A stretch of DNA of 64,000 bases from an uncultured candidate division Zixibacteria bacterium (lineage in GTDB: Bacteria > Zixibacteria > MSB-5A5 > UBA10806): assembly GCA_963801605.1 (NCBI GenBank), contig CAWDFP010000007.1, positions 192,001-256,000 on the forward strand, read 5' to 3'. Below are positions 11,109-46,477 of the stretch, one piece after another. Made by a program: the position numbers and the translations under genes. Every line of letters starts with the position of its first letter. The stretch's first letter is position 1. The notes under the pieces were generated by a model that worked only from the letters and a program-made list of their open reading frames with translations, did not search any database and was not told where the DNA came from.

Positions 11109-11125
11109 CTTCTTATGCTCCTTCC

Positions 11126-12724: not shown

Positions 12725-12755
12725 TTATCTGTATCAATAAGCCGTAAATTAGGAT

Positions 12756-14288
12756 CTATTTTATCAATAACGCCTTAACGGTTGCAGAGTGAGCCTGAGA
12801 AGCGGCCCTAATAAGATAAACACCTGATGATAATGAATTGGAATGGTCGTCCCGTCCATCCCAAACTAAATGATTTTCATGCCCTCCAAACAAAGACAGG
12901 CTTTTTACCTCGCGCCCCATAATATCATAAATTTTTACTTCAATCGGGTCATTCTTATCGAAATGGGATAAATCAATTGTCGTATTGGAATTAAACGGAT
13001 TCGGATAATTTGAAATTTCCTCTTCCTGCCCGGAATCCCAGACAAGCTGAGGAGTAAAATCGAGCGGAATCCGTACATAAGAGTTATAAATACTATCCGC
13101 CAGTAAATTTTGAACTGATGCGAAAACTTCCGATCCCGGAATATTCTGCCGCCAACCTGTAAGATAAGAATCTGCTAAATTTAGAATGCTTGTTTCGAGC
13201 GGCAATGTATAAGTGAATAGCCCAACGCTATCTTTTCCCATCAGATAGCGGCTATCGAGATATTCGCCATCATTATGAAGCGTGTAAATCCTGGCGTGAC
13301 GGGCCATAACCTGGGAATACATGGGAACATTGGTTCCTCGATTTAAAACCGCTGGCACTTGATGCGATTCAACCCACAAAGGATAAGCTACCGAGAGCAC
13401 CGGCTGGCCTATCATGGCATAGATTGTGGATAGCCTGGGGTCTTCGCCCGGTTTTATACCGCGAATAACCATTACCGACCGCGTATTATCCCGATTGATG
13501 GTACTGTCGTGAACGCAGATAAAACCGGCAGGCCGACCATTTTGAGTGCCATTGTAGGGCAAGGGATATGGATCGGCAATCGGATTGGCTAAATCGCGTG
13601 TTAGTTTTTGAAAAATAAACCGGGGATCAATGCCTTGAGTTAACAATCGGGTTCGAACTAAATCGCAGGCTCTTTTATATCTGTCGTAACCATCATAATC
13701 CCTGGTACCGGATAGACTGAAAGTTGCCCGTAGTGTAACGCCGTTTCCTTCATTTAGAGAATCGTAAGCATCAAACTTTACATAACTGAAATTGGCGCAT
13801 TCATACAGAGCGGCGTGCCCGAAAGCATCCATAGCCGCATAATTCCAACAGTCTTTTCTTCCGATCACGGAGGTAGCATCGAGGATATGCTCGAAATCGG
13901 CCAGCGTACGACACCGTCCCAGAGCCATTTTCATGATGGTGCCATCGTCGATACCATCAATCATCTGGTCGCCAAGATTGTAGGAATTGCCGTTGATAAC
14001 CGCAAAACCTGTCGAATTAAGTCCCATGAAAACTTTGGTAGTATCGGAGGAAAAAGCATTGCCAATGAAAGCCAGAGTAGTATCAAGCAGGCTTACGGTT
14101 GGGGCGTAATAACAAAATTTCTGAACGGCGTTGGTGATATCGCGGTTTTTCCAAAGGATAGGGCGCCCATCGGTTGTAGCGTCTCCTGTAAAAATACCCA
14201 GAGTGCATTCACCAATTCTCGGTGGCGCTTTCGTATCGCTTTGAAAGACAATGAGAAAGAGAAGGGCGCAGATTACAATTGATCTCAT
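12756..14288 (-). CDS. Secreted Ntn-hydrolase (C45/C69-like) with T9SS-type CTD; paralog of the adjacent gene
   Basis: GECTLGIFTG..DGRPILWKNRD, DDGTIM, ADPYPLPY and NYPNPFN; start chosen at MRSIV after GCAGGGG. Confidence 0.72.
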   Translation of the reverse strand: MRSIVICALLFLIVFQSDTKAPPRIGECTLGIFTGDATTDGRPILWKNRDITNAVQKFCYYAPTVSLLDTTLAFIGNAFSSDTTKVFMGLNSTGFAVINGNSYNLGDQMIDGIDDGTIMKMALGRCRTLADFEHILDATSVIGRKDCWNYAAMDAFGHAALYECANFSYVKFDAYDSLNEGNGVTLRATFSLSGTRDYDGYDRYKRACDLVRTRLLTQGIDPRFIFQKLTRDLANPIADPYPLPYNGTQNGRPAGFICVHDSTINRDNTRSVMVIRGIKPGEDPRLSTIYAMIGQPVLSVAYPLWVESHQVPAVLNRGTNVPMYSQVMARHARIYTLHNDGEYLDSRYLMGKDSVGLFTYTLPLETSILNLADSYLTGWRQNIPGSEVFASVQNLLADSIYNSYVRIPLDFTPQLVWDSGQEEEISNYPNPFNSNTTIDLSHFDKNDPIEVKIYDIMGREVKSLSLFGGHENHLVWDGRDDHSNSLSSGVYLIRAASQAHSATVKALLIK

Positions 14289-14457
14289 ATTTACCCCTGC
14301 GAAAAATAGCATCAGTTACGAATAAGTCAAGCTTTTAATAAAATTAAGCAAATGTTATCCATTATTGGATGCTGGCAATTCTTGTTAGCGTTTTATTTGG
14401 AATAATTGCGGGACTTTGGCGTATCGCCTTAACTTCCCTCTCCCCCTTTCTTTTAGC

Positions 14458-21800: not shown

Positions 21801-23000
21801 CATGCTAATCTATTCTCAGCAGCGTTACGCCGTTGCGGCCTCGATTCAGAGGTACTGGCGGAAACCGATTCCAGATCCCTTGAACTTGGTAGAAAGAATA
21901 CCGGAGGACGCGAATGCTATCCGGCGGTTTTAACCACCGGCGATCTGCTTCGCGAGCTTGAAAGACCGGGCGTTGATCCCAATAAGATCGCCTTCTTTAT
22001 GCCGACTTCCGGCGGGCCATGCCGTTTCGGGCAATATCAGCAGCTTCACCAACAGATATTGGAAAACCTGGGGTATGGTGATGTACCAGTTTATTCACCA
22101 ACATCCGATAATTCCTACGGCACATTTCCGGAAACTGACAAATCGTTCCGCAGGCTGGCCTGGCGGGGATTTCTGACCGCGGATTATATCAGAAAATTCC
22201 TGCTTCGGACCAGGCCATACGAAAACAATCCGGGAGCCGCGGATCAGATTTATCAGCGTTATATGGACGAGGCTACTCGCGATATCGAACTCGGAGGAAC
22301 TCATCTTCCGGAAATTATTCAAGCCTGTTATCAGGCCAACCAGAATATTATTGATTCTGGTATTAAGAAAAAGCCTCGGGTCGGAGTGATCGGCGAGATT
22401 TATATTCGCAATAATCCCTTTTCCAATAATCATCTGTTAGAAAAACTCGAATCGCAGGGGCTTGAAGCCGATATCGCCAGTTTCTCGGAGTGGATTCATT
22501 ATACCACCGAGGAATATAAAACGGAGTCATGGAGAAAGCGCTCCTGGCGGGGAATGCTCAGCGCCACCATTAAAGCTTATATTCAAAAAAGAGATGAGCA
22601 CTGGGTTATAAGTAATGTTATTGATGAACTTAACGGCGATCGGGAACATCCTATAAGGGAGGTGCTTGGGTATGCCGGGCCATATTTGCCCATCTCAGTT
22701 GGCGGTGAGGCAATGCCCGCTATAGGCAAAGCGATCGACTTGATCAAGCATGGTTGCGTCGGGATAGTCAACACGCTTCCCTTTACCTGTATGCCGGGTA
22801 ATATTATCAATGCCATCTCGTCAAAAATAACCCGCGATTTTAATAATATCCCCTGGCTTAATATGGCTTACGAGGGCGCCTCCGGAGAAAACGATTTAGT
22901 ACGAATTGGGGCGTTTGCAGAGAGCGTCAAATCATGGGCGGCACTCAATTCCTCCGATGAAAAGCTAAAAGATGCCGAATTCTCTAAATTAAGGCGATAG
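18807..23000 (+). CDS. CoA-substrate-specific enzyme activase fusion (two BadF/BadG/BcrA/BcrD ATPase domains plus DUF2229/dehydratase-like domains)
   Basis: Two G[LI]DIGS and CAAGTGSFL modules, RC[ST]VF, CEDCANMC, ETCFPVK, FGCGPD, GPCRFGQY and PFTCMPG. Confidence 0.88.
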   Translation: MEGPKLRLGLDIGSVSLYLIVLDDNDSVIKSYYIRHKGDPIGCAQSAIIQASNEFGEFKYCGFTGNGALQLARIMEAPFLNEFSAISAAVAKLIPSARTIFEMGGQQAKYIHLASDSAGNATSLDDFAASGLCAAGTGSFLDQQATRIGIDIETEFGQLAVQSVNPPHIAGRCSVFAKSDMIHHQQRGVPVQDIIAGLCYAVARNFKGTIAKSKRLDKPVVFLGGVASNPGVVKAFTDVFELTEGELIVPEWHKFAGAIGAASLAREYSLEINQFNEKCREASLLSASGMPRTTALSYLFPETKSYDKTLREEKPRSDVKAGFLGIDIGSLSTNVVLIDENCEVVSRRYLMTAGRPIEAMQRGLREIREEIAPDFEVLGVATTGSGRYLIGELVGADIIRNEITAQATGGAYFVPDADTIFEIGGQDSKYISLDNGVVVDFEMNRACAAGTGSFLEEQAERLAINIKKQFADLAFSAPKPVSCGERCTVFMESDLVRYEQGGASKEEITAGLALAVVHNYLNKVVGRKRVGNKILFQGGVAWNKAVVAAFETVVGKEIMVPPHHDITGAIGAAILVRNVKPAKTNFKGFDLALRKIAQETFRCEDCANMCNITRVIDSGRELYYGSRCEKYDAEGSAKGTAINSVIIRNRKFFASPGKTEKSRPLTVGLPRALANWEYYYFWRRFFGELGIKVLISKASAGEVIQEGVESVGSETCFPVKVAHGHLIDIAKRKLDFIFLPSIITGVENPPKGTNNYYCPYIQAFPFIAAASIRDLQDKDIVSPVIRFGEGLEAVTRVLFAALKKYELTEKEIRNALDSAMRKFDEFKRELIESGKEYLSTISHDRPGILLIGRPYNSLDPGVSMDIAKKLTDLGVTVIPMEMAPVFADDFGFVYWQSGRRILRAAKFARQTPNLYPVYISNFGCGPDSFILHHFKRIMGDKPHLILELDEHSADAGLVTRCEAFLDSLPKGDKAFPAPELQLHSNGYKRKLLIPRMCDHANLFSAALRRCGLDSEVLAETDSRSLELGRKNTGGRECYPAVLTTGDLLRELERPGVDPNKIAFFMPTSGGPCRFGQYQQLHQQILENLGYGDVPVYSPTSDNSYGTFPETDKSFRRLAWRGFLTADYIRKFLLRTRPYENNPGAADQIYQRYMDEATRDIELGGTHLPEIIQACYQANQNIIDSGIKKKPRVGVIGEIYIRNNPFSNNHLLEKLESQGLEADIASFSEWIHYTTEEYKTESWRKRSWRGMLSATIKAYIQKRDEHWVISNVIDELNGDREHPIREVLGYAGPYLPISVGGEAMPAIGKAIDLIKHGCVGIVNTLPFTCMPGNIINAISSKITRDFNNIPWLNMAYEGASGENDLVRIGAFAESVKSWAALNSSDEKLKDAEFSKLRR

Positions 23001-31101: not shown

Positions 31102-34100
31102 CTACTTATCAGAATGAGCCGGCCCGTTAGGATTGGGGTTAAGCAAGTTTGATGGCGGGCAATCGGCGCAAGGGACTGCTCCCGGACCACCTTTGAAATA
31201 GCTAACCATATAAGTAACATCCAGTCCGTTGAAACTGCATGAGCCGTTAACATCTCCTGCTACAAACCAGGTATGTCCGGTGGTGCACTCGCAGGTATAA
31301 CCCGGGGCGGGGCCGCCTTTGAAATACCCCACGCTGTAGGTTACATCCAAACCGTTAAAGACACCGCTATTATTGGCATCGCCTATAGCATAGTGGCAGT
31401 TTGGGCCGACCGATAGAACCGCTATCGATACTGGAATATTGCCCGATGGTGTATCAGGATCGTTTGATGCCAGGGTAATATGGCCTGTATAATTACCGGG
31501 GCCGACGACAGTAGCGTCCAATCTCACGTTGGCAATGAGGCTATCCCCCGGAACGAGCGTATCTGCCGGCGGAGTGACGAAAAGCCAGTTATTGAGAAGA
31601 TGAGGAAGATCGGTATTATTACCATTGCCTCCGCCGTTGCTTGTTATTATCGGCATATCGTTATCGTTATTGCCATCAGGAGCAATCAGGCTGCCCTCGA
31701 TTCCGGTCAAAGTCAGAATTAAATTTGAGCCGCCTGTATTTTTAATTATCAGACTCCTGTCGATAATGGCTCCTTGATTGATATTCTCGGTAAACGACGC
31801 TGGACGCCAGGTAATATTCGGTGGAGGCGGCGCCGTAACCCGAAGCTGTATCGGCATCGTAACCTGCGAATGGGTCGGATCGTTCGTAGTCGTAATCAGC
31901 GAGCTATTATACAACGCAGGAGTCAAGCCAATCGCGCTGAGAGTGACTGCATGCAGGATACTATCACCAGGTGCAATATTGTAGGGGCCGGGCGCTGTCG
32001 TGATCCAGGCGGCTGACGGTGAGAAGGCGACCGTAAGGGTAGCAGATCCTATATTTTTCACTTTAACATCAAACGGGGCCGTCAAGCCAGCCTGTAGCGT
32101 ATCGGTGAAACTTGCAGGGGTTTGCTGAATTTGAGGAGTACCCGCGCTGCCGACAGTAAAGCTGACGGGGATATCGATCGAACTTTCATCAGGATCGTTG
32201 GAATCAAGATCGAAATGACCGGTGTAAGTTCCTGGAAATAAACCTGTGGCATCAAAAGATACCGCCGCCGATGTATCATTGCCGACGGTAAGATATCCAC
32301 TGTGAATAGTGGAATTTAGCCAATTCGCAGGCATATAGAAAGCGATTCCCAGATTGCTATGCAAATAATCAGCATTGTAAACCACCTGCAGGCCGTCCGT
32401 TCCCGATGAATTTTCTATTCCTATAGTGCAGGAATTAAGTCCCCTGGTACCACCATCTACGGTGCCATATTCCAAACGAACTCTTCCAGACGGAAAGAGA
32501 ATGGCCTCAAAATTCAACTCTCCACCGCCTGAAAAGAATTCAATATTTGTGAAGCTCACGATAAAACGGTTGTTTGACGCATCATAATAATACATCACCG
32601 AACCATGCCGTTGAGGACTTAGATCATCCCAAAGCATAGCTATAAAATCGTTCGGTGCATTAGAGCTGGGGATAAGCGTATTTGAATACGATGCAGTTCC
32701 CGCCCCGAACGTCAGGATACCGTTTGAGTTTACATAGATTGAGTTGTAGGTGTTTCCATAGAATGGGAAATCTATTCCCATATTAAATGGTCCCATTGAT
32801 TGGTCGTCCTCAGTAAAAGTAACGGGAGTACCAACGCTGCCGATATCAACCCATTCATACGCCGGGGCTCCAGGATTATCTGAATCTACCCACAGGTTTC
32901 CGAAGACATCCGGGCCACCGTGATTCAGAATAACAGGCGGATAAAGCGGTTCCCTTTCACTTCCGGCCTTTGCTCCAGCCACGTCCATATAACCGATCGG
33001 TTTCGTTACTGATTGAATTATTGGATTGGAGCCGCTGTTATTGTCTAGGATTCTACCGTAATCTGTATATTCGTTTAAAGTAAACGAAAGAAGCCCGCCG
33101 CTGACATTTGAGATAGTTAGGGTATCGTAAATTATCTGACCAACGTCGGCTGACTTAATGAATGACGTAGGATCGTACGAAATATCAGGAGGAACTTGCA
33201 TCCCAACCGCCGTAGTAACCTTGATCGCCCGACCCGCCTGAAGAACCGCGGCCCCAGGATTGTAAAGATTATCATAAGTATACTGAAGACCGTCGCTATT
33301 TGTCAGATTCTGAATTCCCACGGTGCTGAAAAGCCCGGGAGCTTCGCCATAATCCCAACCATCATAATCGTCATTGACTACAGTTTGGTATTGGAATACC
33401 AATTCGCAATCGCCGGTCGGAGTAGGATAATACGTATTATCGTAAATTATCAGTTCGAAAGTCTCGCTCGAGCCTGAGCGCGGGTGTGTGCATCCCTTCC
33501 ACTCAATTATAAGCCGGTGATTGGCCGAGTCATAGTAGCGGAAGACGCCGTTTGGAGCAGTATATTCCAGGTCATCCCAGAATGGCGCAATGATTCCATC
33601 CGGAGCGCTTGGTTCCGGAATTTGACCGTTATCGAATGCGCTCCAATGATGGCCCTGCATATCGTATCTGGTGGTATCGAAAGCAATGAATCCATTGATC
33701 GATACCAGCGCATAATTAAAGGCATGGCCATAGTATTGCAAATTAAAAGGCAAAGAAATGACTTCCGCATCATCGTCCGTACCGAATGGAAAAGTGATTC
33801 GAGTCCCGATTGTGGAAATCTCCTGCCAGTCGTAAATAGGGCATGCCAAATAAGCGCCGTCGGTGTTATCATATAGATAGTAACCGTAAGAATCGGGGCC
33901 AACGGGATCAAATGTATTGACATTCCCTACTACCAATGAGAATGGCCTGGTCGTGACAGAGCCGTTGCTTGATGTCAGCTCAAGATTAAAGCTGATATTG
34001 CGTCCGTTATAGGTGCCCGCTCTGGCTTGAATGCTGAACGGCGATGAGCTATTGGAGCCAGTTGCTCCGATGCCAATATTGCCGAAACTGGCAGTGCCAT

Positions 34101-36705
34101 TTACGATGGCGATACTGGTATCGACTGTAGTTAAAATCCCGCTAATAGATGTTCCTGCCAGGCCGCCAAGATTTTGAAGGCTAACCACTAATTGCGAAGT
34201 TTCCCCGGGATCAAGTCTATTATTGGAATTGCCCGGGTAAGTCAATCCTGTTTCCCGAAACATCATATTACTTACATCCACCGGTACGGCGGCCGTCCAG
34301 TTTCCTTGATCGGATGTGATATTTAATTGAAGAACATAACGTTCTCCATGTGAAATATCAGGAGTTAAAAGAGCCGCAAATTTGTTCGACGTAGCTGTGG
34401 CACCCGGATCTATTGAGCCATATGATTGGGTGGGAACGCTGATAAAAATATCCGGGCTTGGGCTTGTCAGGGTTGCTGAGACATTAGTGGCAGTTGTGGC
34501 ATTCCCAAAGTTACGCAGAGTAACATCGAGTTCAATAGTTTCCGATGGATTAGCATTACCATCGGAATTGCCCTGCGAATTTCCCGAATTATCATCGTCT
34601 AATGCAATTGCATTGACGTTAACAGCCACCGGCGAAGCTTGAACTAAAGTTGAGCCAAGATGAGGAATATAATTAACGTCTGTGACTGTCACAAACATTG
34701 TATCAGCGACCGTGGTTGCGAAATTGAGCGTTATATCGCCGTTAGCATCGGTTCTACCGCCGACAAAAACTTCCTCGGTGGTTCTTCCCTTTACCAAATT
34801 GACATAAGCTCCTTTCAACGGGGTCCCGCCTGTGCCCGTTACGTGAACGGTTATTATGCTTGAGCCCACCGGCAATGTAGATGGGTAGGTAACCGTCATT
34901 GTTTTGGGAGTAGTCGTCCTTATATCAAATTCCGGTTCCCCCAAAGTATTGAATGTATGGCAATATCTCTCAACCCAGGATCCGGGGCCATTGGCCCTTG
35001 GAAAGGTATTATAAAGCTCCATCTTGCCGGCAAAGGCCGCGGTTGCGAAATTATGAATATCCTGTTCGAAAATAGACCAGATATAGCCAAACATGAGTGG
35101 ATTATTGTATTTGGAGTGAGTGCCTGACTCTACTGCGCCATAAAACCCCGGACCGCCCTTCAGTTCGCTTGGCGAGGCTCCGGCCTGAATCCAGACTTCT
35201 CCAAAGCATGCCCCGGATCCACCATAGGCGCCCGTGCCGCATGTAAGAGACGCCAATACCCCGATTTTATTATTGTTAGCCACTGAGGCAAAATCGGAAG
35301 TTAAGTAAACCGGCAATCCAAATCCAGATGGAGACCCCCATCCTCGATAATTTACCAGCGATACGCCGCTGTTAAGGGAGGCGGTAATCTGGCCAGGGCC
35401 GGGGTCACCTCCGGGCTGCCAGCCGAAAGATGTATCAACCCTTGTAAATCCGTGACGCATCATTTGCTCTCGCGCCCAAAGGACATTGAGTCTCGGGCTT
35501 AGAGTCGGAGCCCCTCCGGAATTATAATTTCCGGCGGTACAGAGACCTCTTGTCCAATAGGCGGGATCACCCACGTAGGGAGATTTATCATATATGATAC
35601 TTTTATAAATGGTATTTCTTACAGTAATGTTATCGTTGGCCATTGACATTCTGGTCACCATGACATCCGAAAAATAATCGGAACCATCTACACATGAATA
35701 ATGGTGATCGGACGTATATCCTCCGAAACCATAATCGACGATACCTTCGTTGGTATCGCCTATCAGGCAAACAAATTCTGGAGGAATGGCCCAGGTATTG
35801 TATGCATTCTGAATATAATTGAAAACCGCAGCATTGGAGCCGCCGCCTCCGCCGGGAATATCAGTCGATCGGGTTACTATTACGTTATACCCCTTACGAT
35901 GCTTCCAATTGGCGAGAAGCTGAATAAGTGAATCTGGGAAAGCATTCGGCGTAATGATAAGATAACCGCCTCTGACTGGTTCATAGGACGCCAGCATTTC
36001 ATCGGCGTTGGGTGCAATTGAACGATAGAGTTCCAGGTATGACTCGGAAATATGATTGTCACGCCTGATTTTGATATTACGGTTATCCGTTCCCTCATAC
36101 ACCAGGCGGTAATCGACGCTGGTATAAACTTTAAGCTGTCTGGTAACGGGGTTATATTGAATCGGATTTGCCTCGGCCTGGACCATTCTCAAATCGCGGC
36201 AAATCACCGGCTCGCCAACCTGCACCAGTTCCGACGGATAAAATTCGTTTCTCTGATAAAATCCATTATCCCTGGTGAAGGGAATCGCGTCTTGTGACTC
36301 ACCTTCAATTGGCGATGGCTGCGTAGGATATACGTCGACATTATCAATGATCTGATAGGATGATGATACTATTTCAACTCTGATCCCCGCTTGATCCGGA
36401 ATGGCGACAAACTGAGCAATTACGGGTAGATCGGGAAGGCCGTCCTCGCCGGTTTGCCCGTATTTTTCCGGATTATCGGTAATCGGTGAAATCTCCTGAT
36501 AGGATGTAGTCCCCACAGTTTTTTCCGAAAGATCCACGCCTGCCAGGCGAATCGAAAAGCCCGTTTGAGTAGTTGTTGAAAGCGCTTTTTGAATGGGAAG
36601 CTGTCCCATGTTGGCCTGGTCCAGAACAACCCTTCGATTTGCCTCGGCTCCCATGACCAGCGCCGGCAGTAAAAGCATCATCAACATCCGTGTAACAACA
36701 CGCAT
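31102..36705 (-). CDS. Large secreted gingipain-like C25 family protein (propeptide, C25 core, Ig-like repeats, dockerin-like tail)
   Basis: Start MRVVTR after GGAGG; GLPDLP and NPIQYNP propeptide motifs; LANWKHRKGY, LIGD, NYRGWG, SLTCGTG and LGEP; duplicated GDxNxS..NGLDV C-terminus. Confidence 0.85.
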   Translation of the reverse strand: MRVVTRMLMMLLLPALVMGAEANRRVVLDQANMGQLPIQKALSTTTQTGFSIRLAGVDLSEKTVGTTSYQEISPITDNPEKYGQTGEDGLPDLPVIAQFVAIPDQAGIRVEIVSSSYQIIDNVDVYPTQPSPIEGESQDAIPFTRDNGFYQRNEFYPSELVQVGEPVICRDLRMVQAEANPIQYNPVTRQLKVYTSVDYRLVYEGTDNRNIKIRRDNHISESYLELYRSIAPNADEMLASYEPVRGGYLIITPNAFPDSLIQLLANWKHRKGYNVIVTRSTDIPGGGGGSNAAVFNYIQNAYNTWAIPPEFVCLIGDTNEGIVDYGFGGYTSDHHYSCVDGSDYFSDVMVTRMSMANDNITVRNTIYKSIIYDKSPYVGDPAYWTRGLCTAGNYNSGGAPTLSPRLNVLWAREQMMRHGFTRVDTSFGWQPGGDPGPGQITASLNSGVSLVNYRGWGSPSGFGLPVYLTSDFASVANNNKIGVLASLTCGTGAYGGSGACFGEVWIQAGASPSELKGGPGFYGAVESGTHSKYNNPLMFGYIWSIFEQDIHNFATAAFAGKMELYNTFPRANGPGSWVERYCHTFNTLGEPEFDIRTTTPKTMTVTYPSTLPVGSSIITVHVTGTGGTPLKGAYVNLVKGRTTEEVFVGGRTDANGDITLNFATTVADTMFVTVTDVNYIPHLGSTLVQASPVAVNVNAIALDDDNSGNSQGNSDGNANPSETIELDVTLRNFGNATTATNVSATLTSPSPDIFISVPTQSYGSIDPGATATSNKFAALLTPDISHGERYVLQLNITSDQGNWTAAVPVDVSNMMFRETGLTYPGNSNNRLDPGETSQLVVSLQNLGGLAGTSISGILTTVDTSIAIVNGTASFGNIGIGATGSNSSSPFSIQARAGTYNGRNISFNLELTSSNGSVTTRPFSLVVGNVNTFDPVGPDSYGYYLYDNTDGAYLACPIYDWQEISTIGTRITFPFGTDDDAEVISLPFNLQYYGHAFNYALVSINGFIAFDTTRYDMQGHHWSAFDNGQIPEPSAPDGIIAPFWDDLEYTAPNGVFRYYDSANHRLIIEWKGCTHPRSGSSETFELIIYDNTYYPTPTGDCELVFQYQTVVNDDYDGWDYGEAPGLFSTVGIQNLTNSDGLQYTYDNLYNPGAAVLQAGRAIKVTTAVGMQVPPDISYDPTSFIKSADVGQIIYDTLTISNVSGGLLSFTLNEYTDYGRILDNNSGSNPIIQSVTKPIGYMDVAGAKAGSEREPLYPPVILNHGGPDVFGNLWVDSDNPGAPAYEWVDIGSVGTPVTFTEDDQSMGPFNMGIDFPFYGNTYNSIYVNSNGILTFGAGTASYSNTLIPSSNAPNDFIAMLWDDLSPQRHGSVMYYYDASNNRFIVSFTNIEFFSGGGELNFEAILFPSGRVRLEYGTVDGGTRGLNSCTIGIENSSGTDGLQVVYNADYLHSNLGIAFYMPANWLNSTIHSGYLTVGNDTSAAVSFDATGLFPGTYTGHFDLDSNDPDESSIDIPVSFTVGSAGTPQIQQTPASFTDTLQAGLTAPFDVKVKNIGSATLTVAFSPSAAWITTAPGPYNIAPGDSILHAVTLSAIGLTPALYNSSLITTTNDPTHSQVTMPIQLRVTAPPPPNITWRPASFTENINQGAIIDRSLIIKNTGGSNLILTLTGIEGSLIAPDGNNDNDMPIITSNGGGNGNNTDLPHLLNNWLFVTPPADTLVPGDSLIANVRLDATVVGPGNYTGHITLASNDPDTPSGNIPVSIAVLSVGPNCHYAIGDANNSGVFNGLDVTYSVGYFKGGPAPGYTCECTTGHTWFVAGDVNGSCSFNGLDVTYMVSYFKGGPGAVPCADCPPSNLLNPNPNGPAHSDK

Positions 36706-37114
36706 CTTGCCTCCTTCACGATTTTGATTCAGTTCCAATGGGATTTTATTAATTGCATATGAATAACCTGCGTCAATTGCCGCCTCAAATAATTTATATA
36801 ATTTTGGGAAAATACTTCTCTCAAAGAAGCATCTACATATATGATCTAAAACCCGCCCAACACGCATCGCCTACTACTTTGAATTTTGATCCGCCAACTG
36901 GAAACAATTGATTTATGAATAGGAATAAAACCGATAAGCAGGTAATTTCGCTTATTGCACTATTGTGCAAAGGCAGGCAAATTATCGAGGATTTTAATTT
37001 ATCAGGCTGCGCGTCCAATGATGTCAAGCCATGCTCCGAAAAGTAACCCGAAGACCCAACCAGAAGAATATTTCAACTTAGTATATTACAAATATCATCA
37101 AATACAAACGCCTT

Positions 37115-40093
37115 TTACTGTTCCCCAATCACTTTTTCGTCACTCAATGGATGTAGCAAGAGATCTCCCCCGGGAGGACAATCCGGACAAAAGCGCAGCG
37201 GCTCTCCCCCCTTGAAATAGCTTACCAGAAAAGTAACATCGAGACCGTTCACACTGCAGCTTCCATTGACATCACAAGCTGGCGATATCGCCCCGTTGGG
37301 AGGACAATCCATGGTAAAAGGAGGCGGATCGCCTCCCTTGAAATAATTAACCAAAAATACCACATCCAAGCCGTTAGCCTGGCCGCTGTTATTGACATCT
37401 CCCGAAACATAGGATGTGCCGCGGGAAATATTGAAACTAAAATCTTGCGAACTGCTATCAGCGATAATATCTGTAACCAATACGGTGAAATTTATTACAC
37501 CTGAGTCGCCCGGAATACCCTCAAGTAACCCATCACCGGAGAGCGCTAACCCGCTGCCTGCCAGATCGTTATCCCTATCGATCCAGTGCCTGACCCCGGT
37601 TCCTCCCAAGGCCTGAAGTTGAATTGAATAAGGCCGACCTGCGAATCCGTTGGGAAGCGTCAGCGTCGTTATCGCCAGTATCGGATTGACGGTGAATACG
37701 AAGGGACGCTCATCAGAACCGCCTATTTGATCTTCAACTCGCGCCGTAAATGATATCTGGTTCGCGGCAATTGGAACACCCGAAACAAGCCCGGCGGTGG
37801 AAAGTGTCAGCCCGGTGCCATTAAGACCATCCAGGGGATCGTACCAGATTAGCATACCGCTTCCGCCAATAGCCTCAAGTTGCTGGGAGTAAATATGCCC
37901 AACTGTCCAATCGGGCAGTAAATCGGTCGTAATTTCCAATGACGGCGACGCTGTTGGCGGGAAAACGATATAATCGATCCAGCCGCAATCGCTGCCGCTG
38001 GAGACGCCGCGGTCTTTATAATATCCCCATTTGAAAGTGTGCAGACCGGCGCTGACGCCAAAACTTGCCTGGGTCCAGCCAACCTCACCGGACCACTGGT
38101 TTTGAAGATTATCGTCAATATAAAATTTGAGATAATCGTAATTAAGTTCGGAGGAGACTTTGTAATAAAAAGTGATCGTCCCCGGCGCCGCCACGTTCAT
38201 GGAAATGGAAAGCTCGGATGATTGGTAGTGGGTTATCACTCCCGATCTGGCGCTGTATATCCCCTCATAAGGCAGGCTGGTAGTGGTAATCCAACCGGCA
38301 TTACCGCCCATCTGCCAGGGGAAACTTGTAAAGCCGCCTGACTCAAAATCTTCTACCTGCCGTCCAACTATTACGCTGAAAAAGGCGCTGTCGATATATC
38401 CGCCATTGGCCGTTAGCCCCAAACGGAAATTAATCTGATGATAGGCCGGACAGGAATCGGATATAATAAAATTATATGCCGCCAGCGAAATACCGGCGCC
38501 GGCAGGGGTGATATTCGGATAGCCGGAACTGTCTTGCGCGATAGTAATATAGGAATCTGAACTCGATAAAATCCCGATCGTATTCTGAGCGACGCCTCCG
38601 CCATCATTTCTCAAAGTGATATGCATCGAAACAGTATCACCGGGATCAGGCTCACCGGCGTTATTGGATAAATAGGCTAAATCGGGTGTGGTCGGAATAG
38701 CTTGTAGTTGGACATTCACGTAAGTGGCATGGCGGCTGGTAACGCCGATGCCGCTCACCGTTTGAGTAATATATCCGGGACTGGCAAAGCTGAGATTATA
38801 AGTGCCGTTGGCCAGCATACGATGATAATCGCCAACGTTGGGATCTGTAAATACCCGAGCGCTATCGATATCATGGCCAATAACTGTCACAACTGCCGCT
38901 AATGGATCGCCTGTTGAGGAATCGGTGACAACCCCGCGGATGCCGTAAAGGCTGTTTTCAAGATAATTCAAAAATGATATGCGATTATAATCCCAATGCG
39001 CCGGAAGCTGATTGGCTGGAAGAAGTTTGGTGGCCGATATTTCTATCGTTTCCTCGCGATCTCCCTTGAAGTAGGTCATGTAATCTTGCCGTCCGCCGGT
39101 AACGCGATACCAGGCATATCCATTGGTGATGCCATTATTGAGATCGTCCATATAACCCGATGGGCTATGGGCATGGACGGAATCGGCATAGGCGCGGGAT
39201 ACGTTGATAAACCAGGTATTGTCGGCATGAAGCCTGGACCAGGTATCCCAGGGATAATTGACTACCTCGGCCCCACCGTGAAAATTGGCGGAGATGACGA
39301 AACTATGCGCCGCGGCAAAATTCATCATGGCTATCGTTTCGGGCTGCCAGGCGTTGCCATCGGGATGAGCGCCGGCGGCGGGATCGGGGAAATTACGGTT
39401 GAGATCGACACTGTTGGCGTTATATCTCCAGGCGCCGCTGACAGAGTTATTTCCACCATGATAGGTGCCATCGGGATTAGCCAGAGGATTGATCCAAACC
39501 TCGGTGCTGTCCAGAAGCCGGGTAATCTGCGGATCGGTTCCATAGTTGGTAAGCAGGTAATCGATCAAATGCAGCATTAGAATATAGCCGGTGGTCTCGT
39601 CGCCATGCATGGAGCTGGAATACATCACCTCAGGTTCATTTTCCTGAACGCCGATATTTGTCGATAACTTGGCAAAAAGAAGCTGTCTTCCCTGCACGGT
39701 TGTCCCGATATTTACGATTTGACAGAGATTCGGATAGGTGGTGGCAAATAAATTCATCATATCGAGATAGGCTTGATAGGTTGGATAGGTATCCCAATCG
39801 GTGATGACCCCCTCGACTGTATTTGACATGGGAGGATTAATCAGGCTGCCGGGTGACGGTAGAACCTCATAGCGATATCCTAAAGTGCGAAAATAAGCGA
39901 ACTGCTGATCGGTGGCGTAGGCGTAAACGGTCAGGCCATCGACATTATCTATCGAAATGAGATTGGTCAGCTTATAGACTTCATCATGCGAGCTGATTTG
40001 GAATTTGAAATAATTCTGGCCGGTATCGGCCGATGCGAATGCAGAAAAGATCAGGAGCCATATTACGGCCAGCAACAGAACCTTCGTTTTCAC
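37115..40093 (-). CDS. Secreted M14 zinc carboxypeptidase with Ig-like domains and dockerin-like tail
   Basis: Signal peptide; MHGDE, NPDG, DLNRNF, SANFHGG and TIEIS motifs; transthyretin-like domain, putative Ig repeats, duplicated NGLDV tail. Confidence 0.9.
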   Translation of the reverse strand: MKTKVLLLAVIWLLIFSAFASADTGQNYFKFQISSHDEVYKLTNLISIDNVDGLTVYAYATDQQFAYFRTLGYRYEVLPSPGSLINPPMSNTVEGVITDWDTYPTYQAYLDMMNLFATTYPNLCQIVNIGTTVQGRQLLFAKLSTNIGVQENEPEVMYSSSMHGDETTGYILMLHLIDYLLTNYGTDPQITRLLDSTEVWINPLANPDGTYHGGNNSVSGAWRYNANSVDLNRNFPDPAAGAHPDGNAWQPETIAMMNFAAAHSFVISANFHGGAEVVNYPWDTWSRLHADNTWFINVSRAYADSVHAHSPSGYMDDLNNGITNGYAWYRVTGGRQDYMTYFKGDREETIEISATKLLPANQLPAHWDYNRISFLNYLENSLYGIRGVVTDSSTGDPLAAVVTVIGHDIDSARVFTDPNVGDYHRMLANGTYNLSFASPGYITQTVSGIGVTSRHATYVNVQLQAIPTTPDLAYLSNNAGEPDPGDTVSMHITLRNDGGGVAQNTIGILSSSDSYITIAQDSSGYPNITPAGAGISLAAYNFIISDSCPAYHQINFRLGLTANGGYIDSAFFSVIVGRQVEDFESGGFTSFPWQMGGNAGWITTTSLPYEGIYSARSGVITHYQSSELSISMNVAAPGTITFYYKVSSELNYDYLKFYIDDNLQNQWSGEVGWTQASFGVSAGLHTFKWGYYKDRGVSSGSDCGWIDYIVFPPTASPSLEITTDLLPDWTVGHIYSQQLEAIGGSGMLIWYDPLDGLNGTGLTLSTAGLVSGVPIAANQISFTARVEDQIGGSDERPFVFTVNPILAITTLTLPNGFAGRPYSIQLQALGGTGVRHWIDRDNDLAGSGLALSGDGLLEGIPGDSGVINFTVLVTDIIADSSSQDFSFNISRGTSYVSGDVNNSGQANGLDVVFLVNYFKGGDPPPFTMDCPPNGAISPACDVNGSCSVNGLDVTFLVSYFKGGEPLRFCPDCPPGGDLLLHPLSDEKVIGEQ

Positions 40094-40246
40094 AAATCCT
40101 CCAGGAAGCGGTCATTAGAAGGTTAACGGCGCCCGCTTTTCACCCTCAAAAGCGGTCGGTAAAAATATATCATATTTGCAGCTATTTACAAGCGGATTTA
40201 TCTATGGTATCGTTGTTGGTTACGATAAGGGCGGTAAAATAAATTG

Positions 40247-41992
40247 TTATAATCTACCTCGCGCTGGCGGGCAGTCCTGGCAGCCCTGGGGAGCCGGTCC
40301 CATACCCTTCAGATAGCTTACGGAGTAGGTGACATCGAGGCCATTGAAAGAGCAAGAACCATTGGCATCGGCCGCGGAGTAGAATCGTCCCCAGACCGGG
40401 CAATTGCATTTAAAGGGAGGCTCGGGGCCAAATCCTTTGAGATAATTCACACTGTAAGATACATCGAGACCATTGAAATCGCGACTGCCGTTGGCATCAC
40501 CGGCCACATAAGGACAGCCAGGCATAAACATGACGCTGTTTGAGACGGTATCGCCGGGAGTAATATCGATATTTGTTAGAGTCGAATCCATGAAACCCGG
40601 ATAAGAAAGGGTCATCGAATAGTTGCCAGGGACTATATCCGAAATAAAATAATAACCATACTGATCAGTAGTATCGCCAATCGAAGTGCCATCGAGACAG
40701 ATAGCGACGCCGGAAATAGCTATCTGGTTTGTATCTATAACTACGCCCATTGCATATCCGGGGAATGTTAAGGTGGCTTCAACGAAAGTAGAACAACTAA
40801 CCTGGTTGCCAAAGCCATCTATTGCAGTTAAGGCGATAATATTAGTGCCCTCATTTGGATTAAAGCAAACCGTGCCTTTATCATAAGCTCCCTGATTTAC
40901 AAAAATTGTATCAAGATCGCCATTGGGATCTGTAGCGCCGAATCCGGTCAAGCAAACGGGCCGAGTATTGATATAGAGAAGAGATGTATCGCCGGGGCAG
41001 GTGACATCGGGAGGAAAATAAGCCAGCAGGTTGATATACTCCGGCCTTCTGCCCGGTTCCATATAGATGAGCTCGTAATCATCGACGGCACGCCAATTCC
41101 CCTGGGTGGAGGTTGGGAAAACCGAGGCTACGGCCGCGTAACCGCTAAGCGAATCATAATATGAATAAAGGGTATTAACGCGGCGAAATGCCCACATATT
41201 GTAGCCGTCGCTGAGGATGAAATTAAGGGATGCGCCGGCGCTATGATCGATCAGATCCACCAAGGCGTACCTCAAACCGAGTGCGTCTGCCAATTGACCT
41301 GTTCGATATTTTTAAGAAGGTATAAAAAGAAAAGCTCGGAGTCTGTTACTCTTGGAGGTGTCAGACGGATCGCATTCCGGCACACCGGAGCCGGTGGGAG
41401 GATTTTGCGAAAGGTACTCCTCCCCTATCAGATCGAGAAGAATTCGCTTGTTGACCGAACCATTATGCACAAAGGTCCAGGTTCGGCCATTTTTGTGACG
41501 CCAGAACGGATGAGGATTGGCAATGCTGTCACATCCGGAGCAACAACAACCCTGCGAGCAGTGCCTGACATGCGCCATCACGATACTGCACGACTCGCTA
41601 TCCAGCGAAAGAACCAGATTATCAAAATCAGGATCATCGGAAGCCCTGATCGGGCTACGGGCCAACAATGGTTCATCCCCCAAATTTCGATATGAGGCGA
41701 CGCCCCAGCCATCCGTATTAAACCATGACGATAGTATTTTCAGCGAATTAGGATAAGTTATTAAATCTTTTATCAGTATACTATCAGGCAAACCGTTCGA
41801 AATAGCTCCCCACAACCGGCAATTATGGTTTGGCTCATCTCCGTCGATACCCGAAATTCCAGTTTCAATTATTTTTGGCGAATCAGCAAAATCCGGAATC
41901 CATACAGTAAACATCACCATCGCAATAGGAACTGCAATTATAGCTGCAATTCTCATGAGTTCTCTTGAAAAATTTTCTTTCATTTTAAACAT
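40247..41992 (-). CDS. Exported class II glutamine amidotransferase-like (EgtC/YafJ-like) Ntn protein with dockerin-like tail; two compensating indels
   Basis: N-terminal TM or signal segment, then HNCRLWG, DGWG, MAHVR, NPHPF and FVHNG. The TDSELFF motif lies in the shifted frame (~41285-41352). ORFs 41312..41992 and 40247..41293 share one frame; SLNFILSDG; NGLDV twice. Confidence 0.75.
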
Positions 41993-42423
41993 ATTATCGG
42001 ACTTGCTGCTCTATTTCATTAAACGGTGATAATGTGGAATTGAATCGTGCCATCCACAATTCAATATCTCAGGTAATAGAGTATAAATCATTATTAATAT
42101 TCAAGTTACGACACTATCCTGCTATTGGATTAAACAATAGGAAAAATCGTGAATTATTGACATCTATTTTAATCAGGAAAACCAATATAATTTTTTGCGT
42201 TAATACCTCCGTTACGAACGATGGTAGATAAGTTAATCTTACTATAGCAGATAAATAAATATTGTCAAATACAAACTACAAAGTGAATTTGACTTAAAAT
42301 AGAGCTTTAGTATCATAATTAGCTATGGCTTAACGAAATAGGGACGAAATCAATGGAACGGCCAGTGGCATTAATTCTGTTATCAACGTGTGCTTATTTA
42401 CCTTTAAGGACGAAAAATAGGAA

Positions 42424-42451: not shown

Positions 42452-42497
42452 ATGGGTGGCGAGTATTGATATGAATTTACTTAAAGGAAAGGTTAAG

Positions 42498-44774
42498 ATG
42501 CGTGGCAAGATTTTAACATTGATTCTCTGCATTGTTGCGATTCCCCTAACGCTGCTTGCAGAGCAGTTGACTCCACAGGATATTCGGAATATCGAGTGGC
42601 AAATGAAAACTAGTTATTATGACAAATTAAAGGAAAGATTAAACGAACCTACTATTCTGGATCAAAGTGATTTCGATGTTAAATATTGGGATTTAACCCT
42701 GGATGTTACCGATGTCAGTGGTCAGACGATCAGCGGCAAAGTAATCATGACATCGCAAGCGGTTGTCAACAGCCTATCGACCATTGATTATGATTTGAAC
42801 GCATCGATGATCGTAGATTCCGTCAAGGTCGGAGGACAACCGGCAGTTTATAATCATCACGGCAATATTCTTACCATTACATTAGATCGAGCCTATAATA
42901 TCGGTGAGCTATTCACCACTACAGTCACTTATGGTGGGACTCCGGTCGGAGGCGGTTTCGGCTCATTTACCTGGAATACTCACAACGGCCAGCCGATCAT
43001 TTCGAGTTTATCCGAGCCCGAGGGCGCCAGAGAATGGTGGCCATGCAAGGATCAGCCGCACGACAAAGCCGATTCAGCCGATGTCAGAATCATTACACCC
43101 CTGGCATTAACGGGCACATCCAACGGCCTGCTGGTCAGCAATGTCGATAACGGCAACGGTACCAGGACATTTCACTGGCATGTCTCGTACCCCATAACTA
43201 CTTATCTCATTTGTGTCTCGGTTAGCAACTATCGGAGTTTTACAGACTGGTATGTGTACGCCGACGGCGATTCGATGCCGGTCACGCATTACGTCTATCC
43301 TGAACTATACAACTCGGCCGTAATTGATCTCAGCATTACTCCCGCGGCCATCGGGATTTTCGCCAGTATGTTCGGCGAATATCCTTTTATCACTGAGAAA
43401 TATGGGCACTCGCTGTTCCCCTGGAGCGGCGCCATGGAACATCAGGATAACACCAGCTATGGTTCGATGCTTATCACCGGGAATCATTACTATGATATGA
43501 TCCTGGTTCATGAGCTTTCGCATCAATGGTTCGGCGATATGATCACCTGCGATATATGGCCCGATGTCTGGATGAACGAGGGATTTGCGTCTTATTGCGA
43601 GGCGCTCTATACAGAGCGAACCAGCGGTCTGGCTGCCTATCTAAATTATATGCGAATTAATAACGGCGTTAGCGATCCCAGCGGCCCAATTTACAATCCT
43701 AGCGAGCTCTTTGACGGTAATACCGTTTACAGCAAAGGTTCCTGGGTACTGCATATGCTTCGCGGTGTGATGGGAGATTCGTCATTCATGCAGGGATTCC
43801 GCGCCTACGCCAATAACCCCGATCACATGTACGGCACAATCACTACCCGTCAATTCCAGCATCTTATGGAACCATATTACGGCGCCGATTTGGCCTGGTT
43901 CTTCGATGAGTGGGTTTGGGGTCAAAACCGCCCGATCTATCGTTACTCATGGCTGAAACAGGATATCGGCAACGGGCAGTACGAAATCTTCCTGCATGTT
44001 CGTCAGACTCAAGCCTCCCCCGCTCCAAGCGTTTTTACCATGCCGATCAGGATATATCCGAGAATAAATAACGTCGATACTTTGATTACCGTTTGGAATA
44101 ACAGCCGTATCGGTGATTTCCGATTCATTGTCAACGGCAATCCAACTACTCTCGGATTCGATAAAAACAATTGGATTCTGAGAGATGCCACCAGCGAAAC
44201 CTACGGGCTTAATATCGTCACAACGTCACTGCCTGACGGCAACTATCAGTCTGCTTACAACCAGACTATTGAGGCCAGAGGAGGCACGCAGCCTTATCAT
44301 TATGCGGTATTCTCCGGATCGCTTCCTCCCGATTTAAACCTTAATCTCGATACCGGCGTTATCAGCGGTAATTTGACTACAATCGGTACATATACATTTA
44401 CGATCCGATGCACTGATTCATCGAGCCCGGCCAAGAACGATGATCAGGATTACACTATCCACGTGCTCGAGGTCCAGGGCATCTCTGATCAAAACCCGGG
44501 CAACATCCCCACCGATTTTATGGCGATGGGAAACTACCCCAATCCGTTCAACTCCTCGACAGTAATCAAACTCGATCTGCCGGAAGCCGGGAATATTAAA
44601 GTCGATATATATAATATGCTCGGCCAGCATATCGGAACTCTATTCGATGGTTATATGGGCGCCGGTGAAAAAGAGATTGTTTGGAATGGCAATGCGGTTT
44701 CATCGGGAATTTACTTCTACAAAGTGACATCGGGCGACAGAACTGCTACCCGAAAGATGCTCTTGATTAAGTAG
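42498..44774 (+). CDS. Secreted M1 zinc aminopeptidase with Ig domain and T9SS-type CTD
   Basis: Signal peptide; GAMEH, HELSHQWFG..WMNEG and YSKGSWVLHMLR; NYPNPFN..SGIYFY..KMLLIK. Confidence 0.92.
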   Translation: MRGKILTLILCIVAIPLTLLAEQLTPQDIRNIEWQMKTSYYDKLKERLNEPTILDQSDFDVKYWDLTLDVTDVSGQTISGKVIMTSQAVVNSLSTIDYDLNASMIVDSVKVGGQPAVYNHHGNILTITLDRAYNIGELFTTTVTYGGTPVGGGFGSFTWNTHNGQPIISSLSEPEGAREWWPCKDQPHDKADSADVRIITPLALTGTSNGLLVSNVDNGNGTRTFHWHVSYPITTYLICVSVSNYRSFTDWYVYADGDSMPVTHYVYPELYNSAVIDLSITPAAIGIFASMFGEYPFITEKYGHSLFPWSGAMEHQDNTSYGSMLITGNHYYDMILVHELSHQWFGDMITCDIWPDVWMNEGFASYCEALYTERTSGLAAYLNYMRINNGVSDPSGPIYNPSELFDGNTVYSKGSWVLHMLRGVMGDSSFMQGFRAYANNPDHMYGTITTRQFQHLMEPYYGADLAWFFDEWVWGQNRPIYRYSWLKQDIGNGQYEIFLHVRQTQASPAPSVFTMPIRIYPRINNVDTLITVWNNSRIGDFRFIVNGNPTTLGFDKNNWILRDATSETYGLNIVTTSLPDGNYQSAYNQTIEARGGTQPYHYAVFSGSLPPDLNLNLDTGVISGNLTTIGTYTFTIRCTDSSSPAKNDDQDYTIHVLEVQGISDQNPGNIPTDFMAMGNYPNPFNSSTVIKLDLPEAGNIKVDIYNMLGQHIGTLFDGYMGAGEKEIVWNGNAVSSGIYFYKVTSGDRTATRKMLLIK

Positions 44775-44864: not shown

Positions 44865-45383
44865 TTAATTAGTCTCTCTAAAACGCAGGACGGAAAATGT
44901 CCAAATAATAATCGCCAGGCCCATCAGCGCAGTTAGAAGCACCGGCGATAGAGCAGCCTTGTTTAAATACGAAACTACGGATTCCCTGGTTATACCCATA
45001 GAACTCGAGAAGCCCCAGATTCGATTTAATTCGTCTGCAGTTTTAGCCATGCCGCCGATAATAATTTTTTGGTTGGCCATTGTAAGCGCAATAATGATTA
45101 AATATATCGCTCCCAATAGAGCCAATCGAATTCTGTTAACGATTGCCATTGGGCTGACAATTTTAGCCTCCAGCCTCACCGCCTTCATTACATTTACCGC
45201 TATCGATTCAGGAGCCGAACTCGGTAGAAGCGAGTTAAAAGCGTTTTCGGCGCCAGTTTCAAGCATCCCCAATTTCCGGCATGACTCGCACGATTCGATG
45301 TGAGCCATAAAAGCATTATGATCGTATACGGCATCAAGCGGTGATGCCAGAATTCTTTCAATGTCATCACAACTATACTGCAT
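44865..45383 (-). CDS. Putative zinc-finger (HxxxCxxC) membrane anti-sigma factor
   Basis: C...HIESCESC motif and two TM helices; overlaps the stop of the ECF sigma gene. Confidence 0.75.
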   Translation of the reverse strand: MQYSCDDIERILASPLDAVYDHNAFMAHIESCESCRKLGMLETGAENAFNSLLPSSAPESIAVNVMKAVRLEAKIVSPMAIVNRIRLALLGAIYLIIIALTMANQKIIIGGMAKTADELNRIWGFSSSMGITRESVVSYLNKAALSPVLLTALMGLAIIIWTFSVLRFRETN

Positions 45384-45981
45384 TATTTCCCCACAATTTC
45401 CTTAATTCGTGTTTAGCTCTGAATAACCTGACCTTTACAGTCCCAATCGGGCAGTTCAGGATTTCGGCAATTTCCTCATACTTAAGGTCATCATAATAAT
45501 GGAAAATGATGACTGCCTTCAATTCCGGATTAAGTTTATCGATCAATTTTCGAAGATAATATTTGGCCGGGTGATGAACAGAATTATGATTCTCAATTTC
45601 CCGAGTATTATCCTCGATAGATTCCATATTATTCGGCATTTTCTTTATATGCGTCATCGACGTATTATAGGCAATTCGGTATAGCCAGGTTTTAAAGCCT
45701 GATTTTCTCTCGAAATGACTCAAGGCTCGGTATGCCCGCAGGAATACCTCCTGGGAAACATCCCTGGCTTCGTCCTCCGACTTAACCAGGCCCCTGGCCA
45801 GAGTAAACACAAAATCCTCATATCTTCTGACCAGGATACTAAAAGCCTCACTATCTCCGTTGGCAACAAAACCGATTATCTCCTCATCGTAATAATAATC
45901 GCTTGAGGCTCTGGCCCTGACGGCGCCAGTGCGTCTTAAAAAGGTTTTTGCCAGCGATGTAACGTAAGCCTCATTGCTCAT
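45373..45981 (-). CDS. ECF RNA polymerase sigma factor
   Basis: DVSQEVFLRAY, FKTWLYRIAYN and YEEIAEILNCPIGTVKVRLFRA. Confidence 0.93.
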   Translation of the reverse strand: MSNEAYVTSLAKTFLRRTGAVRARASSDYYYDEEIIGFVANGDSEAFSILVRRYEDFVFTLARGLVKSEDEARDVSQEVFLRAYRALSHFERKSGFKTWLYRIAYNTSMTHIKKMPNNMESIEDNTREIENHNSVHHPAKYYLRKLIDKLNPELKAVIIFHYYDDLKYEEIAEILNCPIGTVKVRLFRAKHELRKLWGNNAV

Positions 45982-45989
45982 TTTTATCC

Positions 45990-46071
45990 CTTTGACCTTA
46001 TATACGATTAATTTGTTTCAATGGGTGCGCCTTATTTTTTTGAAACAATCCGCGCTATTCCGAGGTCAAAG
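45990..46071. promoter_or_regulatory. Back-to-back ECF-type promoters
   Basis: TTGAAACAA-N14-AGGTCAAAG occurs on the minus strand (46021-45990) and on the plus strand (46040-46071). Confidence 0.75.
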
Positions 46072-46096
46072 CGACAAAAGAACGAATGGAGGAATA

Positions 46097-46477
46097 ATGT
46101 GGCAGGGAGACCCAAATATCGGCGTAGTAATGATAATCATGGTCATCTTTTGTTCGATGGCCGCAGTGCCAATTCTAATCGGGCTGCTAATCTTCAACAA
46201 CGCCAAAAAGAAACGCGAAGCGGAATTAATGAAATTATCGGTTGAGAAGGGATTACCAATCCCGATTTTCCCAGAAAAGCATTCCATTTACGGCACTCTT
46301 AAGGCCGGCCTTATTTGGATCGCGGTCGGAATCGGGATAATCCTGATGGTTGCAATTGAAAGTGAAGGCCGTATGGAAGGCGTTTCCCTGGGATTCCTTC
46401 CGATCCTGGTAGGTGTTGCCCTTATAATCAGTTGGAAACTGGAGATTCGTGAAGCCAGGAAAACCTCGTCTGAATAA
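46097..46477 (+). CDS. Small 3-TM membrane protein (DUF6249-like)
   Basis: SD GGAGG; TM, then LSVEKGLP linker, LKAGLIWIAVGIG and GFLPILVGVALII. Confidence 0.75.
   Translation: MWQGDPNIGVVMIIMVIFCSMAAVPILIGLLIFNNAKKKREAELMKLSVEKGLPIPIFPEKHSIYGTLKAGLIWIAVGIGIILMVAIESEGRMEGVSLGFLPILVGVALIISWKLEIREARKTSSE

Follow-up and report, generated by a model that had tools for sequence, protein, structure and literature searches.

A dockerin-type tail at 50 loci of a Zixibacteria genome and its probable docking onto cohesin proteins with type IX secretion tails

We analysed a stretch of 64,000 nt (the window) from an uncultured candidate division Zixibacteria bacterium (assembly GCA_963801605.1, contig CAWDFP010000007.1, positions 192,001 to 256,000), in which three adjacent hydrolase genes at positions 31,102 to 41,992 end in one duplicated, Cys-rich module. 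The module is predicted to fold as a dockerin; a profile built from it, as the original prediction had proposed, found it in 52 open reading frames (ORFs) at 50 loci of the host genome (3.06 Mb, 87% complete). It is a general tag and not a peptidase label, since most tagged loci carry non-hydrolase or unknown proteins. The tail probably docks some 50 secreted proteins onto cohesin proteins that are likely held at the cell surface through C-terminal domains of type IX secretion (CTDs). The best reading of the data is a general cohesin–dockerin surface display, protease-rich but not protease-only.

RESULTS

Three hydrolase genes share a duplicated C-terminal module

A Pfam scan of the window ORFs placed the Peptidase_C25, Peptidase_M14 and GATase_4 genes next to each other on the minus strand. 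The adjacency, shared orientation and families of the three hydrolases were as originally described; the third, an N-terminal nucleophile (Ntn) enzyme, is not a single ORF in this assembly. The modules at the gene ends are called GL-type after a conserved residue pair.

31102..36705, minus strand: C25 (gingipain-fold) protein (PF08126, PF01364, PF03785, PF06119)
31144..31407, minus strand: GL-type dockerin of the C25 protein, six Cys (sequence, AlphaFold2 model)
37115..40093, minus strand: M14 zinc carboxypeptidase (PF00246, E 2.9e-56; PF00404 above cut-off)
37163..37423, minus strand: GL-type dockerin of the M14 protein, different Cys pattern (sequence, PF00404)
40247..41992, minus strand: class II amidotransferase-like (Ntn, GATase_4) gene with dockerin, broken in the assembly (PF13230, E 7.2e-11)
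40256..40525, minus strand: GL-type dockerin of the Ntn protein, six Cys (sequence)

The same duplicated module does end all three proteins: identity with the C25 tail is 54% for the M14 tail and 59% for the Ntn tail, far above chance. All six repeats contain NGLDV, repeat 2 carries NGSCS, and the terminal CxDCPP reads CADCPP, CPDCPP and CQDCPP. The opening motif Y-x2-GD, which had been proposed for both repeats, was seen in repeat 1, repeat 2 beginning instead with FVAGD, PACD or SAAD. Two of the usual six Cys are missing from the M14 tail. This tail matched the dockerin family PF00404 above the Pfam cut-off; the C25 and Ntn tails gave no match.

Predicted fold of the tail

An AlphaFold2 model made from an alignment of 45 tails reached a predicted local distance difference test score (pLDDT) of 90; two of the five models were near 90, and the other three had values of 50-57. 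Its best structural match was dockerin 5m2o_B (Z 10.4, root-mean-square deviation (rmsd) 1.9, 70 residues aligned). The top 14 matches were all dockerin-containing entries, and the first non-dockerin appeared at Z 2.6. The model thus points to a dockerin fold, as had been expected from sequence. Positions 1, 3, 9 and 12 of the Ca loops are Asp or Asn in 44-45 of the 45 tails in both repeats. In dockerins, loop positions 10-11 set cohesin specificity; these hold GL in 34 and 37 of the 45 tails, in line with the role originally presumed for this pair.

Six Cys were present in 30 of the 45 tails. In a larger set of 151 tails from the host genome and fetched loci, 96 had all six and 28 had positions 57 and 83 alone. 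The latter are short tails, and the retention of just these two positions suggests one core disulfide between them. The other four Cys co-vary (phi 0.66-0.83), and no pairs among them emerged from co-occurrence. Disulfides and Ca binding are properties that the tail is likely, judging from its residues, to possess.

Cohesin proteins in the genome

The original prediction had called for a genome-wide search for cohesins, the window itself showing none. With PF00963 we obtained six matches in five proteins, all outside the window, and a cohesin profile built from the genome detected 11 domains in eight ORFs, six of which have a CTD. Most of these cohesins are clustered at C6:258-283 kb, where four GL-tagged genes are found as well; the cluster recurs in three related genomes (G085, G161, G175).

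The largest scaffold is a non-catalytic protein of 709 aa with the order cohesin, immunoglobulin-like (Ig) domain, cohesin, dockerin of a second class, cohesin-like domain, CTD. It is modelled with pLDDT 87 and has about 50 near-full-length homologues (43-69% identity). Foldseek of the whole model was swamped by multi-Ig proteins; the cohesin folds were resolved by the VIA search, in which residues 282-420 matched cohesin 6kgc_A (Z 19.7, rmsd 1.6, 135 aligned) and residues 28-180 matched cohesin 2vn5_A (Z 17.4). The third domain matches PF00963 and was poorly tested by the structural search. A scaffold with more than one cohesin is therefore present, with two folds supported by structure and a third by its PF00963 match.

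At the other end of the range, a protein of 274 aa consists only of a signal peptide, a cohesin and a CTD, with no dockerin of its own; the profile of its family matches the clostridial cohesin 2vn5 (E 2.2e-9). A small protein resembling it was found in 11 of 14 fetched stretches, which had been picked for a cohesin match. A further protein of 193 aa (L028:366-944) has a signal peptide and a cohesin with neither CTD nor dockerin, and could possibly act as a free or periplasmic cohesin.

Tagged cargo

Pfam scans covered sets of 8, 57 and 15 ORFs, some small cargo fragments being left out. Hydrolase domains were found in 13 of the 50 loci. Eleven of these have a peptidase domain (four C25, three M14, two S8, one C1 and one M28), and the other two are the Ntn enzyme and a metallo-beta-lactamase-fold protein; inspection added a broken M14 gene. 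The 37 loci with no Pfam hydrolase domain include five LVIVD and two Kelch proteins, a sortilin-like propeller, a cupredoxin, a cytochrome c, an Omp28 protein and many unknowns, several of which matched no Pfam family at all. The largest cargo is a cadherin-like (adhesin-like) protein of 2657 aa. No glycoside hydrolase family was matched among the cargo ORFs scanned, which agrees with what had been seen in the window. By a hydrophobicity heuristic, 28 of 48 tagged ORFs start with a signal peptide, and most of the failures inspected were downstream fragments of broken genes.

Several tagged proteins have unusual architectures. Two tandem genes (L021:413-742 and L021:799-1143; C6:961410-962143) encode a signal peptide and a GL dockerin only (110 and 115 aa); such proteins could be cohesin caps or competitors. 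Three small proteins (L038:234-782, L040:3114-3590, L041:4168-4752) combine a domain of ∼60 aa of unknown type with a GL dockerin, and each of their genes follows a gene with a coiled-coil tail, one of the upstream genes having a Peptidase_S74 chaperone domain. At L013:6021-6779 a cohesin and a GL dockerin occur in one protein, broken in the host genome and intact in G161; at L027:825-1691 an unknown region is enclosed by two dockerins. The last two types could be adaptors or cross-linkers.

Two C-terminal tags and the secretion machinery

GL dockerins and CTDs are mutually exclusive: a CTD was found in 117 ORFs of the genome and in 0 of the 52 ORFs with a GL dockerin. Conversely, all six dockerins of the second class (AD/GD type) are located inside cohesin–CTD proteins. 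The two tags are shared by related proteins, as 25 of 41 tagged cargo regions have a relative in a CTD protein of the same genome (E <1e-8; some over only ∼100 aa). The window C25 protein itself has a CTD-ended paralogue (41% identity across 1190 aa).

The genome search gave 105 Por_Secre_tail matches, and SprA, PorU and eight PorV-family genes exceeded cut-offs. The cohesin scaffold proteins end in Por_Secre_tail and coexist with these genes, as expected of type IX substrates. For the motor component GldM/PorM, TIGR03517 matched neither this genome nor the controls. Comparison of secretin profiles identified no clear type II secretion system: one of the two secretins is PilQ and the other falls below both the PilQ and the GspD cut-offs. 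The latter belongs to a cluster (L152:6300-19171) with PilM, a GspE/PilB-like ATPase and a PilC/GspF homologue, which is a candidate exit for cargo without a CTD.

Distribution in the phylum and the recognition pair

The tail profile matched 192 of 201 Zixibacteria genomes and PF00963 matched 190 of 201; four genomes lack both. In this search at most 26 tail candidates were scored per genome, out of first-look candidates that reach 303; both searches can miss divergent copies, and related genomes are not independent. Nearly every relative with this tail bears a Zixibacteria label; the exceptions are one assembly under the name Ignavibacteria and one that has no label.

GL occupies the recognition pair in 116 and 115 of the 151 tails. 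In orthologous Ntn genes the pair is GL in the host family and GS or GN in the sister family, as expected of a recognition code; in a few other families inspected we saw VS, IG, IS or LL. Such shifts by lineage support, for the recognition pair, the lineage-specific character that had been suggested for the tail.

Weighing the explanations

If docking is what the tail does, the cargo would cross the inner membrane by Sec, and the tail would fold in the periplasm with two Ca ions and its disulfides. The cohesin–CTD proteins (of 274 aa, 709 aa and their paralogues) would leave through SprA/PorV, to be cut and attached by PorU. The GL surface would bind one class of cohesin, and the AD/GD-type dockerins might link scaffolds to each other or pack on an adjacent cohesin. 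The cell would end up coated with a mixture of peptidases, propellers, adhesins and redox proteins, which would suit protein-rich particles. Fold matches, counts, the mutual exclusion of the tags and gene content are the observed part of this scheme, whereas cohesin binding, anchoring and surface location of the tagged proteins are its inferred part.

Several observations weigh against it. Some 50 tagged genes would have to share roughly ten cohesin domains, no long tandem cohesin array was seen among the cohesin ORFs of the 87% complete genome, and the second-class dockerins inside the scaffolds may already take up the cohesins. Position 5 of the Ca loop is mostly Ser, not Asp. The one secretin other than PilQ, a candidate exit for CTD-less cargo, scored below both the PilQ and the GspD cut-offs. 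Across the phylum, seven genomes have the tail without PF00963, and five of the nine genomes with no tail match have PF00963. Of the three outcomes that the original prediction had named as counting against it, none was clearly borne out: cohesin proteins, as candidate partners, were found and the tail models as a dockerin; the third, a tail attached mostly to non-enzymatic or cytoplasmic proteins, is near to what we observed.

A narrower picture, along the lines of the original prediction, has the three enzymes as core subunits of a dedicated peptide-degrading analogue of the cellulosome, assembled on one multi-cohesin scaffoldin. This appears very improbable. It could draw on the 11 loci with peptidases, the lack of glycoside hydrolase matches and the M1-Ntn-M14-C25 gene order, kept in the same-genus genome G205; but a Pfam hydrolase domain is lacking from 37 of the 50 loci, only one of the four tagged C25 proteins (not that of the window) retains the gingipain His, the three-gene order was found in one of five relatives' stretches, with other Ntn neighbours in G085 and G203, and the largest scaffold has three cohesin-like domains.

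Two other explanations keep the general tag, and we regard both as unlikely. Cargo could bind a small cohesin–CTD adaptor already in the periplasm, be carried through SprA and be attached afterwards or not. The mutual exclusion of the tags would fit such piggy-back export, although it is equally expected if docking follows export. The kinship of cargo and CTD proteins (the C25 paralogue included) would also fit, as would the minimal composition and recurrence of the 274-aa protein (in stretches picked for a cohesin match) and the absence of a clearly identified type II system; however, the second secretin cluster, with its GspE/PilB-like and GspF/PilC-like genes, could export the cargo, some of which is very large (2657 aa). 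Alternatively, the tail could be a dockerin-derived anchor or cap that binds lipopolysaccharide, an S-layer, a non-cohesin receptor or itself, with the cohesins serving the second-class dockerins only. Dockerins with no cellulosomal role exist, tails exceed cohesin domains about five to one, and the six second-class dockerins, all of them in the cohesin–CTD proteins themselves, could be the only partners of the cohesins. Set against this are the 274-aa and 193-aa cohesin proteins with no dockerin of their own, the GL-tagged genes that flank the cohesin cluster, and a recognition pair that is near-fixed within a lineage and changes between lineages.

Docking onto surface-held cohesins remains our preferred reading. 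A bolder and unlikely extension of it is a phylum-wide two-tier display. Much of the secretome would then have a dockerin in place of the type IX tail; small cohesin–CTD adaptors would carry or capture dozens to hundreds of tagged proteins, with export piggy-back through SprA; the scaffold would be assembled by two dockerin classes that are orthogonal to each other; and the recognition pair (GL, GS, VS, IG, LL) would act as a lineage-specific code.

The interrupted Ntn gene

The two parts of the Ntn gene, GATase_4 at 41312-41992 and the tail-bearing part at 40247-41293, share a frame and are separated by TAA at 41312-41314. Three-frame translation against relatives placed the conserved DSELFFLYLL stretch of the gene in a different frame.

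41280..41350, minus strand: out-of-frame stretch between two compensating frame shifts (near 41350 and 41280), holding TAA 41312-41314 (three-frame translation against relatives)

We judged between an assembly error and a real lesion from relatives and from other broken tagged genes. In two sequencing runs compared with 40200-42100, no read or contig spanned the break. An assembly error is likely, because at all 9 loci from relatives (9 of 9) the gene reads through without interruption to its dockerin, and the present assembly breaks many more tagged genes in a like manner. Frame breaks are frequent in long genes throughout the genome and distort its automated annotation.

The Ntn protein (window 41312-41992, minus strand) is an exported-looking member of the EgtC/YafJ-like GATase_4 family; as a rule such enzymes stay in the cytoplasm and have their Cys at the N-terminal end. 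It has a hydrophobic N-terminus, and its putative nucleophile is Cys58 within HNCRLWG; as this residue lies behind the leader, a mature N-terminal Cys would require processing.

The C25 and M14 enzymes

The C25 protein has a signal-peptide-like start, a propeptide, a catalytic domain, Ig-like and NIDO-like repeats and the C-terminal dockerin. Its start is most likely the ATG at 36705, behind an AAGGAGG ribosome site, and not the ORF-finder start at 36867. The gingipain-like designation holds for fold and family by Pfam; it does not extend to the catalytic His. In alignment with the gingipain structure 1cvr, GHG is replaced by GWG with Trp at the His position and the Cys is kept, so that the His of the His-Cys dyad was not found at its gingipain position. 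This is a feature of a subfamily in which GHG becomes RG[WAY]G and the Cys motif CG[TL]G is retained.

34800-36000 of the window, minus strand, with L137-L146, L043, L060, L091 and L100: C25 subfamily members (conserved motifs)

At an E-value of 1e-30 the His-less subfamily was confined to the order of the host (61 genomes searched). Another conserved His, in HT[KRQC][WY]xN, occurs in the window protein as well as in 12 of the 13 relatives from the subfamily, and is possibly a relocated general base.

The M14 protein has a signal-peptide-like start, Ig-like domains and the C-terminal dockerin. We read the motifs HGDE, NRNF, FHGG and a C-terminal Glu motif, which we take to provide the Zn ligands (HxxE and His), the Arg of NRNF and the catalytic Glu; all are present.

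Neighbouring genes

42456..44774, plus strand: M1 aminopeptidase, divergent neighbour with type IX secretion C-terminal domain (PF01433, PF17900, PF18962)

An M1 aminopeptidase occupies the equivalent position in G205. A three-gene operon conserved beyond the genus was ruled out by the gene orders given above. Elsewhere in the window we observed a run of CTD-ended proteins (8022-14312, minus strand), the first with weak M36/FTP matches; a 1397-aa BadF/BcrAD ATPase with DUF2229, of the CoA-enzyme activase type (18807-23000, plus strand); and, from a reading of the sequence, an ECF sigma-like gene flanked by anti-sigma-like and small membrane protein genes (44865-46477, minus strand).

DISCUSSION

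Cohesin–dockerin peptidase complexes have already been proposed in silico for two other phyla, and the idea itself is not new. For Ca. Stygibacter (Cloacimonadota), a cellulosome-like complex has been predicted in silico, in which S8 and C25 peptidases bear dockerins and the scaffoldin ends in a CTD (PMC8542988). Enzymes with signal peptides and C-terminal dockerins, a CTD-ended cohesin scaffold and non-enzymatic dockerin cargo are common to both systems, again in silico only. Ca. Stygibacter is described, for one genus, with a handful of cargo proteins including GH18 and GH57 and one scaffoldin of 3,755 aa with tandem cohesins and carbohydrate-binding modules (CBMs) (PMC8542988). Zixibacteria differ in their 50 tagged loci with no glycoside hydrolase match, several small scaffolds that contain dockerins of a second class, a tail rich in Cys and matches phylum-wide; a very large scaffoldin with tandem cohesins and CBM2/3 was not found among the cohesin ORFs of the 87% complete genome. 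The 'planctosome' of Nemodlikiaceae (Planctomycetes) is a proposed polypeptide-degrading cohesin–dockerin complex with an M14 carboxypeptidase (PMC6461901). It shares with Zixibacteria an adaptor having both cohesin and dockerin; its anchor is proposed to be a lamin-tail domain, not a type IX tail, and it has few components and a different phylum as host (PMC6461901).

With clostridial and ruminococcal cellulosomes (5m2o_B, 4dh2_D; OlpA/OlpC anchors 3ul4, 4dh2) the system shares folds, the duplicated Ca loop with a symmetric pair, two dockerin classes, and single- and multi-cohesin scaffolds. It differs from them in that no glycoside hydrolase cargo was seen and no cellulose-binding module on the scaffolds scanned, and in having a diderm host, a CTD in place of S-layer homology domains or sortase motifs, and a dockerin with as many as six Cys. 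It would function as cellulosomes do and yet does not count as one, because no glycoside hydrolase family was matched among the cargo ORFs scanned. Compared with type IX sorting in Bacteroidota (CTD, SprA, PorV, PorU), Zixibacteria share the CTD tails and the SprA, PorU and PorV-family genes, and differ in that the same families of cargo also use another C-terminal tag in parallel, and in having eight PorV-family paralogues. No report of a dockerin, a cohesin or type IX secretion in Zixibacteria was found in the open-access literature, supplements excluded (supplements of genome surveys could list Zixibacteria dockerins), and Zixibacteria do not occur in the main text of PMC11557425.

If the proposed docking is true, cohesin–dockerin assembly would extend from degraders of plant fibre to a whole diderm phylum, where it would be coupled to type IX secretion and serve a broad surface proteome. 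The long-standing question of what non-cellulosomal dockerins bind would become testable with two small soluble domains, and designer enzyme complexes could gain an orthogonal tool from a disulfide-braced pair that has a recognition code of its own.

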